Shown here: positions 251-58,422 of the stretch, one piece after another | How positions within the stretch are numbered: position 1 is the first letter of the stretch | Layout of the letters: each line of letters opens with the position of its first letter | Source: Torpedo marmorata | Lineage: Eukaryota | DNA length: 64,000 nt | Direction of reading: 5' to 3' | Assembly (NCBI GenBank): GCA_977017645.1 | Contig: OZ360220.1 | Location: 311,240,001-311,304,000, forward strand | Program-made: the position numbers and the translations under genes | Notes under the pieces: model-generated | What the model saw: only the letters and a program-made list of their open reading frames with translations | Told to the model about the DNA's origin: nothing | Database searches by the model: none

Positions 251-1370
251 AGTTACGAATTAACAAACCCTGTTAGTACTAACAAAGGAACATCAATGAA
301 ATATGCACCAGACAATGGTAAATTCAAAAATAGTTTTTATTTAAAACTATTAATAACATAACATATCTTACTTGTCTCTAAACTTAACTCTAACTTACCC
401 ACTATGTGGAAATGTAAATGTGTGTGTGTGTGTTAAAGTCCAAACTATTTAAATTTAAACTTAAATCTGAAAAAGTCAATTTTTAAAGTCCAGTTTCCAA
501 CTTCTTTTGTTGAACTTCAGGATCCCTTTCAAATTGTAAGTCAGAAGTTATTATAAAGCAAGAATGGAGCATTCGATTTCTTTCAAACTCACACGTCTTT
601 TGATTAGTTGTCTTTCAGAGATAGTCTTCATACGAGTGTGTTCACAAGTTTCCCCCTATCTTGTTAGGGTTACGGAACTGTAATCTTCAAAATGATTTCT
701 TTCTTAATCAGGAGTAACATACGGTGATGTCCTCTTTTCTTAGAAAAGAATTTGAAAGTGGTCTTACTTATTTTAAAAGCCACTTATATGGTGTATCTCC
801 TATGATAAGGATAATACACAGAAACAGCACCTCCATTCATTCAGAGATCACTGCTCATAAAATGATTCTACCTTTCCAGAATATCAAAGTTCTTCAGAAT
901 TTAAATATTTGTCTTTCCAAAGTGTCAGCGTTTCTTCAGTCTGGTGCAGACTGTTTCTTTTCAAAATGTCCCTCTCCTTTCATTATATATTTCTCACATC
1001 ATGTGACATTACATCACCACAGTTTTAGTTTAATTTTCGAATGAATTAACTCATGCCTTTCTTCAAAATCACTTACATTCACAAAAACATCTGAACTCAT
1101 CTCTGTTCCAAGATTATAAGTGATTACGACTCCGAATAGTCTAGTACGTCACTCAAATGGCACGAGTTTGCAACAGCTGCTATCATAAGGCTTTTAGAAA
1201 CCACACATTGTCCTTAAATCACTTAAATGCACTTCTGTTTCATTGGCTGTTGTCTTCTTAGACGCGGCGACTCCACACTGAACTCTCTCTCTTAGTAATG
1301 GGTTTTTCCTGCAAATGTGCTGCGACTTGTGTGACCCTGTACCAGCCCACAACTAACCTTACTAAGATTT

Positions 1371-2298
1371 TGTTACAAATTCAAACCAGCAACGACTGAA
1401 GACGCAATGCAAAAGGGGTAAAATTGAAATTTATATTTATTAAAGACAATTAAACATATAATTTCACAATTAACCCCACTATAAAAGTCTATAAACACTA
1501 TTCTTATCTAAAAGGTGTGTGTGTGTGTGTGTAAAGCCCAGACCATTACAGTCAGTGCCCAACCCTCATGTAAAAATGGAAAAACTTTCCCCAAAAACCC
1601 CAGGTCAGTCATAAAAACCAGTCAGTCAAAAAAAATAATACAGTCCACAAAAATTCACTTTCTAAGTTCAGGTTCCAAATTTAGCTCTGTGTGCTGTAGA
1701 GAAGGACTTCTTAATGAACGTTGGAGAGAGACAACGACTGGTTATGCTTACGAATACTTGGCTTGCTTTTCTTCTCTGATGACGTTCCCTTCTTGTATTT
1801 TCATAAGGATTGCGAATTCAGATCCGTTTTGGATTAAGGCGTAATACTTGGATTTCACAGCCGGTTCCTCACAAAAGCTGTTCTCACAACTCAGGATTCT
1901 GCCGAATCATCAGGCCTTGTTTTTCTCTGGGATGCACAAGCCTGGACTTTTCTGATTCAAGAGACTCTGTGCTATTCTCCCCACTTCTTCTCTGGGATGC
2001 ACAGGCCTGGATCCTACTGAGTTCTCCTGCCTTTGCAACTCCAAAAATGCCACACTTTTAGTTTTCAATTTAGGCCTCACAATAGAGAGAGAGTTTTTCT
2101 CTCCAGCCTTATTATTCCAAAGTTTTTCTTCAAGTGTCCTTTTCACAGTTTGTCTCCCCCTGATGTCTCTCTCTGGTAAATACAAGTAGTCCTGGGCAAG
2201 TTAACTCTTTCAGTACCAGGTCCCAGTGTATACTCCAAAAGACTTCATCCTTCCTGCTTACCGTCCGCAGTCCAAACTGTCAGTCATGGTCCATAACA
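1371..2298 (-). repeat. 3' LTR of the Gmr1-like element
   Basis: TGTTACAAAT...CCATAACA, near-identical to 7232-8169, adjacent to the PPT. Confidence 0.93.
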
Positions 2299-45702: not shown

Positions 45703-46350
45703 TATTACGGTGACTTCGATCCAACAATAGTCACCTGGAGGCTAAGTGAGATACTTGTCTTTGACGCGTTTTAATTAATTTACTAACAAAGTCCAATATG
45801 TTCAAAACCTTTATTTACATAAGTGACTTGCAGTAATCTTCAATGACTTTAATATAAACAGTTCTTGTAAACGATGTATGATGAGTTCCTTTAAATAATT
45901 CTTTAAACAATTCCAAAACTATATGAAACACTGTAGAACGATGTAAAAGTTATAAAAACGATATAAAAACGGTCAATAAAGATGTGGAGACCTCACTCAC
46001 CCTCCAAACATCTTATTCCTTTCCTTTTTTCTATCTCTATTCTTGATTTGCGCATGCCCATTAGCTCCTAAACCACTGCGCATCCTACCCCGCGCATACT
46101 ACATTTCACAGACTGCAACGCGCACAATGACGTCACTCCACACTGCGCACGCGCCCGTCGGCACTCCTGCGCATGCGCAGAGCAAAGAACGGGCCGACGA
46201 CGGCCTACAGAACAACGCGAGCGCTCCATGGCCCGACGTGGCCTCGGAGCGCTCCGAGGACGGCCAACAGAACAACGCGAGCGCTCCAAGGCCCGACGAG
46301 ACATCGGAGCGCCGCAACAACGGTAAGTTAACGAGCCTATGGCTCTTACA
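45703..46350 (-). repeat. 3' LTR of the BEL/Pao element
   Basis: Minus strand TGTAAG...CGTAATA; CpG-rich U3 with a 60-bp tandem repeat; AATAAA. Confidence 0.92.
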
Positions 46351-46554
46351 CCGGCCCCTAATTATTATAATTAGATGTAATGTCTTGAATAATAATTACA
46401 CTATAAATTATAAATAACAATAACCATAACATTCAAAACAATACAAATCTTCTTTCTTCCTTCTTCATAAATCTAGAGTTTACCATAACTCTGATTCAAC
46501 AAAAGTCTGTAACCTGTGAAATATACAACAACAAATAAAGTCAGTTTATATTTA

Positions 46555-46745
46555 TCAAAGTTCCTCTGTCTCCAACAAAAGACAGACCTTGTTAATAGGT
46601 CTGTTTAGAAAACCAATCTTAGTTTTAATTCACACTTGACGCACAAGTCCTCTTTGTCTTGAAAAGTCTCAATAATTTTTTTTTTTAAGTAACCAGGAGT
46701 TTCTTGAAGTTGAATTATCCATAATAATCACAATGTCTCTTTAAA
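46555..46745 (-). pseudogene. Relic of the BEL integrase C-terminal tail
   Basis: Broken frames read DIVIIMDNSTSRNSWLL..IIETF..KRGLVRQV*IKTKIGFLNRPINKVCLLLE, the typical BEL/Pao pol C-terminus. Confidence 0.75.
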
Positions 46746-46776
46746 GTTCTTTTATCTTCAAATCTGAGTTAAAACG

Positions 46777-49700
46777 TCAATCAGTAAACCTCAAATCTTC
46801 TTCAGACAAAATAGATACAGTTTTCCTTTTGAATTTAACATGAGGCACTTCTTCAGCATGTCGTTTCACTTTATTCCTTTCTTCAGTATTCCACTTCTCA
46901 TGTGAAGAATTTAAACTCTTAGAATTAGAATTTGAATATTTATCTGATCCTTTCGATTTTAAACAGGTCTGTTTAACCACTCTGGTTTCTATCGCTCTTT
47001 CCTGCAATTCTAAATCCAATTTTGCAACTTTCAAATCAGTCTCAGCTCCTTCCGAGAAATTAATAATTTGATCTGAAGTCAAAATATCATGTGATACATG
47101 GATATTTCCATTGTCAATCCTGTTGCGGCAAACTTGAAACTTTTTAATTTCTTCATCTTGTTTGTTACATTTCTGCAATGCAATATCACATTCTTTCTGC
47201 ATTGTTAATTGTTGAACATTCAATTTACATTCTTGATTGGTTTTTAAAGTCAACTTTTTTGAGTTATTAACCAATAACTTGTTCTCTTTTAAAACATTAA
47301 TCTCTTCCTCCAACCTTTTACATTTTGATAATGCTGAATCTCTTTCCTCAATAACTGTATTCATTTCTTCAGCAGTTATTCTTTTCTTCCGCTTTCTGAC
47401 TTTGCGAGTTTTACTTACAATTAAATCCTTTTGTTTACTGTTTTCTTGATTATCTAATATTTCCAATTCTCCTTTCAACATTTTGTTCTCTGGATTCAAT
47501 TGCATTAAATTATCATTCACATTATTCTTTATTCCATCAGCACAATTTTCTGTGTTTTCCAGTTTTACATCACATTGCAATATTTCTTCATTAGCTTTGT
47601 CTGTTGTAATCTCTGAACTACAAAATCTACATTCAGATTTGTTTTCAGTCACTTGTTTTATTCCTGTATTTGATTCAATTACACATGAATGATCAATAGT
47701 ATTATTTGCAATATCTTCTAATACTTCACTTTCATCCATTTCTGACGAAATTGATTCCTTCAATGTTGTTTTAAATACCATTGATTTATTTTCACATTGA
47801 TCTGTTTTCTTTTCTTCAAAAGTGATTTTCTTATTCACAGTTTTTTGCTCTTCGCTTAACTCTTCAACTTTCTCAACCGAAATTCTATTAATATTTATCG
47901 CTACCTGTTCCTGAGCAATATCATTATTTCTTTCCATTGGTCCATTGATTGCCCAACCAAGCATGGTTCTAATAGCGTAAGGTCCATTCCTTTTACTCTC
48001 TATTACTTCTTTTGGTACCAAAACCTTTGGCACATCTGAACCAATCAGCATTTCTATCTCAGAATTAATTTCAGGTAAATATACCTTCCACAGATAAGCT
48101 AAATGATGAATATCCCTTTGATGAGGAATATTTCCTTCATTCACAGGCATCGTTTTCTGAGTATATACACTTGGAAGATCACAAAATTTTTTGTCATCCA
48201 ATCCAGCAACCTCTAAGCCTGAAACAATGTTAGTTTCAACAACCTTTTCTTGTCCCATGGTTTTTAACATAATTCTTGATCTTTTTCCTTGAATATTAAG
48301 TTTATTCATTAGTCCTTCCGTGCAAAAAGATGCAGTGCTGCCTGGGTCTAGAAATGCATATGTTTTTACTATTACATCCCCTTTCTTGGCCTTGACTTGT
48401 ACAGGCACTATTGAAAGTTTGCAGTTATCCACACCGGCCCCAGTAAGACCACTTGTCTGAACCGAGGTTATAACATTATTTTCTGTTGTTTCCTTTGTTT
48501 CTGTTTGCTCCTTTTCCAATTCCTTGTTTCTGTTATGGATATGCAAAATTCTAGGATGTTTCAAATTGCATATGTTACAATTAATTCGCTTCTCGCAGTT
48601 TTTACTGATGTGCCCTTTACACAGACAGCTAAAACATATTCCATTTTCCTTTAAGAAAGCGATCTTTTCCTTATGTTCCTTCTTTTCCAATCCTAAACAC
48701 ATTTCTAAAGTATGTCCACCTTTACAGAACAAACAACTCTTTTTATTAGGCAAACTTTCCTTTTCCTTATTTATAACTGACACATTAGTAGCAAATGTAC
48801 TCCTTTTCACTTTCGGACTAGACAGTGTGTTAAACTTCCTTACATCTTTGCCCATTGAATTATCTCTGGCATTTCCATATAGTGGATCTGTTTCAACGTA
48901 CACCCGTCGTTCAAGAAAATTTACCAAATCCTTTAAGGTAGTTTTTCGACCGTAATCTACTTGTAAATCACAAGCCAAATCTCTCCATCTATCCCATAAC
49001 TTGTAAGGTAATTTTTCTAAGATGATTCGCATATTACTATGTACTTCAAGCTCACGAATATTATCGATTTCTTCCATAGCATTACAACATCCTCTTAAAA
49101 ACAAAGTATATTCTTGCAGAGCCTTTACATCATTTTGTTTTATTGATGTCCATTTAAGAGCTTTATCCATATAAGCTAAAGCAATTCGATGTTTGTTGCC
49201 AAAATATTGTTCCAATAAAGCCTTAGCTTTGTCTAATCCTCTTTTTGAAGACATTTGTTTACAACTCTTTACCAGTTCTTTTGGATGTCCCTTTGTGAAC
49301 ATTTCCAAATAATAAAGACATTTATCACGATCTTGGCATTTATCTTCAATATTGCGTTTGAAAGATCTCATAAATGATTGATATTGAAGTGGATCACCAT
49401 CAAAAGTTTGTATCTCTTTCTTGGGTAAAGAAGAGAGAGACTGTAACTGAAACAATGATGCAGCAGTTTCATTCTGTCTTTCCTTGGATGACAATACATT
49501 GCTCTGTTCACCGTCTCTTGTTGCATGTAATGTATCTGGAAACCTCACTGGTGTAGTTTCTTCCATATTTCTGATGCTTGACTCACATAACAAAGAAGCT
49601 ACTTCGTTCGACCGAACCCAAGCCGCAGCTTTGCTTTCAGATGTTACTATTGGTACATGTGACTCGATACCAATATGCTCTTGAAAGGTTTGTCCTTGTA

Positions 49701-50637
49701 TATGTAAGTTTTGTATCCTTGGTTCTAAAATATCTATTCTTTTGGTTGGTTTCTTTTCCTGTGACTCCTTTTTTAAATATGACCTTTTATTATCAGACAA
49801 TTTAGATAATTTACTGCTAGCACCAGATACCATTGAGCCTTTTATTGCTTTCTTTTTTGCCTTGGCAATAGCAATGTTTGCTTCCAGCTCCTGCTGTTCT
49901 TTTATCTGCCTTAGCTGCTCTTTCTCTTGTCTTAGCTGCTCCATTAGCTGCTTCTCATTTTGTCTTAGCTGCTCCTTTAGCTGTTTCTCATTTTGTCTTA
50001 GCTGCTCCTCCTCTTGTCTTAGCTGCTCCTTTAGCTGCTCCTCCTTTTGTCTTAGCTGCTCCTTTAGCTGCTCCTCCTTTTGTTTTATCTGCTCCTCCTT
50101 TTGTTCTAAAATATGTTTCTCCTTAAGCGTTTTTTGTTGTGCAAAAAGAGCGGCCAAGTCAACTTCAATCTTTGTACGTGACGATGCAGAACTTGAAGTA
50201 CGAGAAACTCTGGAGCTCGAACCAGAACTTCTTTTGCTTCTCCTGCTTTCAGCATTTGAGACACTGTCACTTGCTTGTATTTCGTCCTGCAGTTCATATG
50301 TTGTCTTCATACTTACCTCTTTATCCAATTCGAATTGTATATCCTTTGCATCTTCAACCACTTCAATTTCTTCATCATTTGTTGACACAATTTCAGCCAT
50401 TTCCATTTTATCTTCTTGTTCAACTAATGAAGCTGCCTCTTCATCCTTTGCCAGCTTCAATCTTTCGATAAGAACCTTTTTATTTCCACTTATGTCCTTT
50501 TTCAGTCGCTTCAATTCTTCTTTAATATCCGAGACCTTCATGTCTTCAATACGTTGGTCCTCAACCGCAACATCAACGGTTGCTGCGTCAGCTGCTGATA
50601 CATCAGTAGATGCTGTATCAGAGGCTGCTGCGGCCAT
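46777..50637 (-). CDS. Intact chimeric BEL polyprotein: SAP domain, coiled coil, gag, triple zinc knuckle, protease, MIPOL1-like coiled coil
   Basis: Uninterrupted ORF with likely ATG at 50637 (aaaATGGcc). FDGDPLQY...F gag core; CLFCKGGH...C, CFSCLCKGH...C, CNICNLKH...LH knuckles; AFLDPGS protease. Confidence 0.88.
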   Translation of the reverse strand: MAAAASDTASTDVSAADAATVDVAVEDQRIEDMKVSDIKEELKRLKKDISGNKKVLIERLKLAKDEEAASLVEQEDKMEMAEIVSTNDEEIEVVEDAKDIQFELDKEVSMKTTYELQDEIQASDSVSNAESRRSKRSSGSSSRVSRTSSSASSRTKIEVDLAALFAQQKTLKEKHILEQKEEQIKQKEEQLKEQLRQKEEQLKEQLRQEEEQLRQNEKQLKEQLRQNEKQLMEQLRQEKEQLRQIKEQQELEANIAIAKAKKKAIKGSMVSGASSKLSKLSDNKRSYLKKESQEKKPTKRIDILEPRIQNLHIQGQTFQEHIGIESHVPIVTSESKAAAWVRSNEVASLLCESSIRNMEETTPVRFPDTLHATRDGEQSNVLSSKERQNETAASLFQLQSLSSLPKKEIQTFDGDPLQYQSFMRSFKRNIEDKCQDRDKCLYYLEMFTKGHPKELVKSCKQMSSKRGLDKAKALLEQYFGNKHRIALAYMDKALKWTSIKQNDVKALQEYTLFLRGCCNAMEEIDNIRELEVHSNMRIILEKLPYKLWDRWRDLACDLQVDYGRKTTLKDLVNFLERRVYVETDPLYGNARDNSMGKDVRKFNTLSSPKVKRSTFATNVSVINKEKESLPNKKSCLFCKGGHTLEMCLGLEKKEHKEKIAFLKENGICFSCLCKGHISKNCEKRINCNICNLKHPRILHIHNRNKELEKEQTETKETTENNVITSVQTSGLTGAGVDNCKLSIVPVQVKAKKGDVIVKTYAFLDPGSTASFCTEGLMNKLNIQGKRSRIMLKTMGQEKVVETNIVSGLEVAGLDDKKFCDLPSVYTQKTMPVNEGNIPHQRDIHHLAYLWKVYLPEINSEIEMLIGSDVPKVLVPKEVIESKRNGPYAIRTMLGWAINGPMERNNDIAQEQVAININRISVEKVEELSEEQKTVNKKITFEEKKTDQCENKSMVFKTTLKESISSEMDESEVLEDIANNTIDHSCVIESNTGIKQVTENKSECRFCSSEITTDKANEEILQCDVKLENTENCADGIKNNVNDNLMQLNPENKMLKGELEILDNQENSKQKDLIVSKTRKVRKRKKRITAEEMNTVIEERDSALSKCKRLEEEINVLKENKLLVNNSKKLTLKTNQECKLNVQQLTMQKECDIALQKCNKQDEEIKKFQVCRNRIDNGNIHVSHDILTSDQIINFSEGAETDLKVAKLDLELQERAIETRVVKQTCLKSKGSDKYSNSNSKSLNSSHEKWNTEERNKVKRHAEEVPHVKFKRKTVSILSEEDLRFTD

Positions 50638-51072
50638 TTTACTCGTCTTGTTCCTCTTTCCTTCAAGCATACACAACACTAGCCAAACAACAGTCCCCAA
50701 TGGACCAGCGGCAGCAATTCCAATCTGTGTTCTTACTTGCTAAAGATACACAGAAGGAGTCCACAGACTTATGCCTACCACTTCAAATGACTGTAATGTG
50801 CTGCAATCCACAAACGAGTTTCAACCACAACATCCGTCAACAATATCTCTAATTTTCCAAAAATAGTTTCTCCAACGTATTTATAGGACACTTTACTATA
50901 AGATTTGAAGCTTTAAATCCCTCTCTGGCTGTTATTCATGGCAGATGGATGTGGATTACAAACTGCCCCCAACTCGAGGCATCTCCAAGATAGCCACCAT
51001 TTTATATCAGTCCAAAGCACAGAGAGATTATTCTATCTTCTTTCTTTCAAACTTCTGTTCCAAACAGCCAGC

Positions 51073-51083
51073 TCTTTATTGAC
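51073..51083 (-). promoter_or_regulatory. Putative self-priming primer-binding site (GTCAATAAAGA)
   Basis: Starts 2 nt after the 5' LTR, has no TGG, and is the exact complement of the LTR 11-mer at 51355-51365. Confidence 0.65.
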
Positions 51084-51085
51084 TA

Positions 51086-51726
51086 TATTACGGTGACTTC
51101 GATCCAACAATAGTCACCTGGAGGCTAAGTGAGATACTTGTCTTTGACGCGTTTTAATTAATTTACTAACAAAGTCCAATATGTTCAAAACCTTTATTTA
51201 CATAAGTGACTTGCAGTAATCTTCAATGACTTTAATATAAACAGTTCTTGTAAACGATGTATGATGAGTTCCTTTAAATAATTCTTTAAACAATTCCAAA
51301 ACGATATGAAACACTGTAGAACGATGTAAAAGTTATAAAAACGATAAAAAAACGGTCAATAAAGATGTGGAGACCTCCCTCACCCTCCAAACATCTTATT
51401 CCTTTCGTTTTTTCTATCTCTATTCTTGATTTGCGCATGCCCATTAGCTCCTAAACCACTGCGCATCCTACCCCGTGCATACTACATTTCCCAGACTGCA
51501 ACGCGCACAATGACGTCACTGCGCACGTGCCCGTCGGTACTCCTGCGCATGCGCAGAGCAAAGAACGGGCCGACGACGGCCTACAGAACAACGCGAGCGC
51601 TCCATGGCCCGACGTGGCCTCGGAGCGCTCCGAGGACGGCCTACAGAACAACGCGAGCGCTCCAAGGCCCGACGAGACATCGGAGCGCCGCAACAACGGT
51701 AAGTTAACGAGCCTACGGCTCTTACA
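51086..51726 (-). repeat. 5' LTR of the BEL/Pao element
   Basis: Copy of 45703-46350, flanked by TSD CCATG at 51727-51731. Confidence 0.92.
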
Positions 51727-57800: not shown

Positions 57801-58422
57801 TATAAGTAACGGTGACTTCGCTCCACCAATAGTCACCTGGAGGCTAAGTGTGGTCCTTGCTTTTGACGCGTTTTAATTAATTTACTAACAAAGTCCAGTA
57901 TGTTCAAAACCTTTATTTTCACACATGACTTGCAGTAATCTTCAATGACTTTAATATAGACAGTTCTTGTAAACGATGTATGATGAGTTCCTTTAAATAG
58001 TTCTTTAAACAATTCCAAAACGATATGAAAACACTGTAGAACGATGTAAAAGTTATAAAACGATATAAAACGGTCAATAAAGATGTGGAGACCAGACTCA
58101 CCCTCCTACATCTCTATCCTTTCTTTGTTCTCCCTCTCTAATGGCTCTGCGCATCCTACCCCGCGCATACTACAACTCCCAGCCTCCCACGCGCACAATG
58201 ACGTCACTCCATACTGCGCATGCGCCCGTCGGCACTCCCGCGCATGCGCATATCAAAGAACGGGCCGACGACGGCCCACAGAACAACGCAAGCGCTCCAA
58301 GGCCCGACGTGGCCTCAGAGCGCTCCGAGGACGGCCTGGTGAACAACGCGAGCGCTCCAAGGCCCGACTAGACATCGGAGCGCCGCAACAACGGTAAGTT
58401 AAACGAGCCTACGGCTCTTACA
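57801..58422 (-). repeat. Solo LTR related to the BEL/Pao element at 45703-51726
   Basis: Diverged copy of the BEL LTR; TSD CCCAC (57796-57800, 58423-58427). Confidence 0.88.

Follow-up and report, generated by a model that had tools for sequence, protein, structure and literature searches.

The window analysed here, a stretch of 64,000 nucleotides from Torpedo marmorata (contig OZ360220.1), carries on its minus strand a retrotransposon of the BEL/Pao type, bounded by long terminal repeats (LTRs) and a target-site duplication (TSD), together with a solo LTR of a sister subfamily. The features relevant to this work are listed below.

45703-51726, minus: whole BEL/Pao element, defined by its LTR pair and target-site duplication
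51086-51726, minus: 5' LTR, 641 nt, TG...TA; TSD CATGG at 51731-51727 and 45702-45698
51355-51365, minus: LTR 11-mer TCTTTATTGAC, the putative self-primer, with the cut predicted between 51355 and 51354
51193-51198, minus: AATAAA
51144-51155, minus: AAAACGCGTCAA, a U5 motif complementary to the sequence around the predicted cut, to which the snap-back fossils described below return
51092-51118, minus: U5 terminal hairpin GGTGACT...AGTCACC (folding prediction)
51073-51083, minus: GTCAATAAAGA, the post-LTR site, occupying the primer-binding position behind a TA spacer (51085-51084)
46777-50739, minus: frame of 1,320 codons from stop to stop, coding for a SAP domain, a BEL-type Gag that includes three zinc knuckles, and a protease motif, followed by a tail
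46351-46363, minus: purine-rich tract AATTAGGGGCCGG ahead of the 3' LTR, with a similar tract in relatives
45703-46350, minus: 3' LTR, 648 nt, with a copy of the 11-mer at 45982-45972
57801-58422, minus: solo LTR of a sister subfamily, ending in TTATA, TSD GTGGG, 11-mer at 58083-58073

An earlier description made from the letters of the window (the sequence-only reading) had placed the LTR end, the TA spacer, the two 11-mers and AATAAA at these same positions, and all of them were re-located there. The CATGG duplication on both flanks fixes the LTR end at ...CCGTAATA, and the two LTRs align with 631 matches and 10 mismatches. The LTRs, the TSD and the purine tract are those of a BEL/Pao element, with termini TG...TA instead of TG...CA. 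Downstream of AATAAA, three contigs from another organism, whose RNA origin is a guess, show a poly(A)-like loose end after about 51181.

The assignment to BEL/Pao, already proposed in the sequence-only reading, is borne out by the BEL-type Gag and protease and by the relatives of the window protein, which carry PF05380, PF03564 and PF18701; the Pfam match of the window protein itself is the SAP domain only. This DNA-binding domain forms the N-terminus of Gag (residues 64-95 of the window frame). Protein relatives number 228, and the 120 listed share 41-61% identity, most of them with BEL/Pao Pfam families; those named among the 120 are bony fishes. The third zinc knuckle, CX2CX3HX4H, has the Sinbad/Pao spacing and not that of Suzu, according to the comparison in the accessible part of PMC554778, this spacing being the single character behind the likeness to the Sinbad subgroup.

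The tail of the 1,320-codon frame gave no match to reverse transcriptase (RT), RNase H or integrase, an absence that the sequence-only reading had not reported. Over its first 3,882 nt the element has 95% identity with a partner bearing a long polyprotein frame; an unrelated high-copy tail comes next. Partners with the same LTR carry the PF05380 region inside frames of about 2,000 codons. The window element is a high-copy, non-autonomous BEL/Pao derivative and, as it lacks the three enzymes, its priming must use those of a partner. At 46351-47845 (minus) the pol region is replaced by the unrelated open tail, for which 1,814 candidate places were found in searches covering the 6.2-Gb genome; the 40 scored are 98-100% identical. 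A protein of 1,015 aa with the Gag domain alone (P0002) may represent a comparable non-autonomous form elsewhere. The solo LTR at 57801-58422 is inserted within a repeat that matches window positions 273-1371, where the site is empty.

The primer position of the window element

The site GTCAATAAAGA, which follows the 5' LTR, is complementary to TCTTTATTGAC of the element's own LTR, found at 51365-51355, 45982-45972 and 58083-58073. As the sequence-only reading had stated, the post-LTR letters are without TGG, likewise in all 28 families described below, and the other three LTR elements of the window do have tRNA-type sites: TGG-type starts were located at about 7233 (minus), 42494 (plus) and 54900 (minus), recognised by how the sequence begins and not by matching to a particular tRNA. 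In a chance control, none of 4,675 other internal start points reached a 10-nt LTR complement, the longest exact one being 9 nt.

The post-LTR pattern gave 10,092 junction matches in the Torpedo genome. In a hand count of the 100 listed among these, letter 11 is variable (G 54, A 31, T 14, C 1); the exact 11-nt complementarity that had been claimed thus holds in the window copy but not family-wide, where the invariant part is 10 nt, extended to 11 by a G-U pair in most of the 100 copies listed. Among 30 close copies, found with a query that included both pairing halves and therefore ascertained, 29 have the initial 10 post-LTR letters unchanged, 27 have an unchanged LTR site and 26 have both. 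When letter 11 was examined for overwriting, it showed 8 changes on the 30-copy tree, and other columns reach 7-9. The 11-mer is indeed present in the 3' LTR and in the diverged solo LTR, but any letter of an LTR would be repeated there, and its presence is no sign of selection. The evidence for pairing is the covariation between families. The spacer ahead of the site measures 2 nt in the window subfamily, 0 in a sister subfamily and 3-4 in most others (L062 and L065 compared).

Covariation between families and a predicted intron within the LTR

The pairing co-varies over 28 families, grouped by us into 15 intronless and 13 intron families, with 21 distinct 10-mers that all start with GT and never with TGG. 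It is 10-15 nt long in the intronless families and 10-14 nt in the intron families, and in the families examined it begins 0-4 nt past the LTR end with the polarity of a primer. Loss of the complementarity in related families, which the sequence-only reading had named as the outcome that would speak against it, was looked for, and the 28 families keep the complementarity with different letters. In a cross-family matrix, cross-matches of at least 10 nt occur only between families that share the post-LTR 10-mer.

Within the Torpedo genome, 20 places were taken from 150 PF05380 matches, and 16 of them have an LTR pair. A 10-12-nt complement was found automatically in 12 of these and upon inspection in two more (L069 and L070); the exceptions are L064, with a mutated LTR site, and L075, with a truncated repeat. 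The L077 family (TCTCTGTCGAC/GTCGACAGAGA) differs from the window pairing by three compensatory changes. Of its 30 loci examined, 28 are 5' copies, and these keep the post-LTR site in 28/28 and the exact LTR half in 22/28.

The loci of this type (L077, L081-L110) are chimeric, with a different LTR and primer site stacked onto a window-type interior, and the old U5 end and old site remain about 100 nt inside the leader in all 28 5' copies. The old site shows 6/280 letters changed against 0/280 in the working site, changes that are shared by descent, the LTR half being equally variable.

A metagenome scan yielded 70 more distant loci (38-73% identity), 11 of which had LTR ends fixed through repeat divergence. 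Two of the 11, L113 and L163, pair unspliced over 12 and 11 nt. In eight others, pairing of 11-14 nt arises only once a GT-AG intron of 77-186 nt within the LTR is removed, the unspliced pairing being 6-10 nt; L157 pairs over 11 nt across a 105-nt intron after its LTR end was re-set post hoc with looser splice rules. Without splicing, and with G-U pairs allowed, the pairing of the intron families is not above chance, which is why a splice test was run: 8/10 elements with mapped ends scored 11-14 nt, whereas random internal 30-mers reach 11 nt in 1/2,000. The remaining 59 loci comprise 12 without a 5' region, 23 with a 10-15-nt complement, one discarded (the match of L155 lay in an unrelated flanking repeat) and 23 without a complement, so that a complement of at least 10 nt was not found in 23/47 metagenome loci having a 5' region, many of these 23 apparently being incomplete. 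In a viral contig collection no relative was found.

The intron, which splits the primer of these distant relatives and was not part of the sequence-only reading, is seen most directly in L178, where a GT-AG 117-mer is absent in the 5' copy and present in the 3' copy, and where the join pairs 14/14 with the post-LTR site. L174 is the joined form of the L168/L169 intron. The joined junction is thus seen in two contigs, which by their structure appear to derive from RNA, and is predicted in the other intron families. On a 41-sequence tree built from RT, from which L114 and L127 are excluded, the intron group stands apart from the group holding the window element with a support of 0.986; the tree has a midpoint root and no outgroup, and intron gain and loss are therefore unordered on it. 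L163, though intronless, is nested among the intron families, a possible case of precise intron loss.

From self-pairing to proposed self-priming

The window element likely begins minus-strand synthesis with its own RNA, without a tRNA, as Tf1 does, and we place the probability of this reading at roughly 85%. The post-LTR 10-11 nt complement an LTR stretch ending in ...TTGAC. In the transcript, both halves would pair beside the U5 hairpin. By analogy with Tf1, and in keeping with the fossil junctions described below, the RNA would then be cut right behind GAC, an autonomous partner's RNase H being the probable agent, and a 3' end would be freed. From this end RT would copy TA, then U5, then R until it reached the cut, and would then transfer to the 3' LTR. 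The plus strand would finally copy the attached primer and restore the site; if the site is regenerated from the primer in this way, both halves would stay matched while evolving. In the 13 distant families, the primer would arise only once the LTR intron is spliced out, and the intron could persist only if the spliced 5' part never serves as a template, a condition that cutting at the primer would guarantee.

Aberrant genomic junctions, taken as fossils of replication, bear on this scheme. The U5 end joined to antisense LTR starting at the 11-mer was found in 75 junctions, against 0 for a reversed-pattern control and 4 for the reciprocal junction; not all of the 75 copies are independent. They sort into 30 snap-backs, 24 cases of a normal LTR with antisense U3, 2 clean inversions and 19 other or unclassified. 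In the 30 snap-backs, U3 runs through TTGAC, about 50-76 nt of antisense U5 follow, and R is then resumed at or shortly past the predicted cut. They occur on 8 U5-end backgrounds, some of them in both LTRs of one element. Such a shape is expected if TTGAC marks both the end of the primer and the place of the template cut: minus-strand strong-stop DNA terminating at the cut could fold onto its own U5 copy and read through the attached primer. The snap-backs support the predicted cut without proving it, since the return point is a short homology and cut-free template switching could give the same shapes. The 24 antisense-U3 cases look as if they came from a plus-strand fold-back. The fossil extensions stop at 19, 24, 28, 32, about 70-79 (two) and about 160 nt without clustering, and 14/24 exceed 200 nt; those of L220 and L222 extend across all of U3 into the 3' internal region.

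Where the primer begins is a separate matter, and the odds between a 5' end at the 11-mer, as in Tf1 and as the sequence-only reading predicted (about 51365-51367), and one 20-40 nt upstream are near even. In folding predictions, the helix has a pairing probability of 0.96 for window RNA begun at the 11-mer and about 0 with 40 extra nt, an upstream hairpin competing with it in the window family. With a 40-nt leader the helix reaches at most 0.07 in 9/15 elements folded, the window element included; in L137 it is absent at every start tried, and in L070 and L062 it is weakly formed. When the whole region was folded from 51410, the helix did not form (z -0.49). A start at the 11-mer also agrees with the pairing never exceeding 15 nt and with its extension to letter 12, with the usual letters behind, in 1/100 listed copies. 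Against such a start, L178 has 83 nt ahead of its donor, and the intron families would need first exons of 3-8 nt if transcription began at the complement. Also against it, TATA-like boxes, a pattern chosen after inspecting the sequences, start 58-83 nt ahead of the cut in 10/14 intronless families, though not in the window family, and point to the site 20-40 nt upstream. The U5-end hairpin is predicted at a common position, with different letters, in L077, L069 and L113; a U5 stem-loop is reportedly required in Tf1 self-priming.

Two apparent transcript features were set aside. In families of the Torpedo genome, a donor-like GG|GTGAGT and an acceptor-like CTACAG| flank the 11-mer (window 51383-51314, minus). 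The motif at 51383 is limited to these families and has no matching joint among those listed for the contigs; it was dropped as a splice donor of the window family, though not disproved. A contig gap at 51299-51500 closed on a sister LTR and reflects a subfamily difference.

Could the pairing be a conserved leader structure, serving packaging, dimerisation or a translation switch, with priming achieved by other means? Covariation by itself proves pairing and not priming, the competing hairpin of the window family suits such a structure, and the junctions could stem from template switching on short homologies. Yet the pairing lies 0-4 nt past the LTR end, has primer polarity and always starts with GT, no replacement tRNA site is present, and the junctions are asymmetric (75 vs 4). 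Moreover, persistence of an LTR intron spliced in the 5' copy would need the 5' part of the RNA to stay uncopied. We consider this explanation unlikely.

A related possibility is that LTR-derived RNA does prime but is supplied by the 3' LTR copy or, in trans, by solo-LTR transcripts, and not by the 5' end of the same molecule. The L220 and L222 fossils, running through U3 into the 3' internal region, would fit this, as would the contiguity of the joined form with U3 in L174 and the roughly 10,000 junction copies, which imply many LTR transcripts. The fossils of the L220/L222 type are, however, explained by fold-back of plus-strand strong-stop DNA, L178 is spliced in the 5' copy only, which would disfavour the 3' copy as primer, and a cut in the 3' R would probably destroy the acceptor of strand transfer. 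This alternative appears quite improbable.

Priming of the window site by a host tRNA, tRNA half or precursor is the least credible explanation and very improbable: half-tRNA priming is known in Copia elements (PMC6317226, in its accessible part), and complements of 10 and 8 nt occur in the trailers of two tRNA-Cys genes (L187, 1560-1590, minus, and L206, respectively), but the L187 match lies outside the mature tRNA and not at a Pol III stop, both trailer matches are probably chance, and there are 21 different sites, each matching its own LTR. A tRNA match, which the sequence-only reading had asked to be sought, reaches at best 5 nt for the window site inside 30 tRNA genes of 7 amino-acid types, and at most 8 nt for any of 20 sites. 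This sample of 30 loci is not exhaustive, so the argument is carried by the covariation. Rfam gave nothing near its thresholds. Overall, the self-priming interpretation is supported, priming itself being predicted from sequence.

Whether the scheme extends to a whole branch of BEL/Pao elements, from vertebrates to distant animals, we regard as an even bet. In that case the host spliceosome would build the primer in a part of this branch, where only the spliced 5' copy could pair and the cut would protect the intron from erasure by reverse transcription; in place of a free 11-mer, the primer may then be the 3' terminus of a capped 30-50-nt leader, and the vertebrate-like branch of the window element would be the intronless form.

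Comparison with known systems

According to ICTV, Belpaoviridae are tRNA-primed, with an 18-nt site for tRNA-Arg or tRNA-Gly (PMC8742986). The window lineage shares with members of this family (Tas, BEL, Pao, Sinbad, Suzu), as far as the available parts of their descriptions go, the three-knuckle Gag, the BEL-type protease and the 5-bp TSD, and the single polyprotein of about 2,000 aa is matched in the partners of the window element. In contrast to the ICTV description, the tRNA-Arg/tRNA-Gly site is absent, and no post-LTR site in the 28 families has a TGG start. The sequence-only reading knew of no account of self-priming in BEL/Pao, and none was found in the literature searched; Repbase Reports, GyDB pages, subscription papers (e.g., the description of Suzu) and supplements lay outside this search and could hold one. 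In the parts accessible, the text of PMC3118150 contains no mention of primer, PBS, tRNA, priming or intron; PMC554778 contains no PBS or tRNA and uses 'primer' for PCR and sequencing only; and PMC3601003, PMC8220671 and PMC11042837 add nothing further on BEL priming.

If our reading is true, Belpaoviridae would be the third LTR-retrotransposon family with tRNA-free priming, contrary to the ICTV description, and self-priming would explain why tRNA-based annotation sees no primer site in these elements. The intron-split form would make the onset of reverse transcription dependent on host splicing; no such control point was found in the literature searched. The mechanism is testable on native RNA, as one genome offers about 10,000 junction copies and the cut is predicted to the single base.

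In the parts of the sources available to us, self-priming is placed in Tf1/sushi, Tcn1 and TAR/Houba elements (PMC6317226, PMC4600332, PMC7175516). For the TAR/Houba/Osr elements of Ty1/copia, it has likewise been predicted from complementarity; these are plant Copia elements, and no intron-split primer is mentioned for them in the accessible part of PMC6317226. In Tf1, it is the first 11 bases that pair, and the RNase H cut falls between bases 11 and 12 (PMC7175516, PMC4600332, accessible parts). The Tf1/Tf2/Tj1, Tf1/sushi and Tcn1 chromoviruses, as described in those parts, likewise have a primer site complementary to their own LTR and no tRNA, and the window lineage has such a site, co-varying with its LTR. 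Its proteins are BEL-type, with PF05380, PF03564 and PF18701 in relatives, whereas those elements belong to Ty3/gypsy (Metaviridae). Unlike Tf1, the window lineage may use the end of a longer leader as its primer, the primer is intron-split in 13 families, and the window element is non-autonomous and needs its enzymes in trans. The lineage is, in its predicted priming, one that works like Tf1, and by its polyprotein, which is not that of Ty3/gypsy, it is not a member of the Tf1/sushi chromoviruses.
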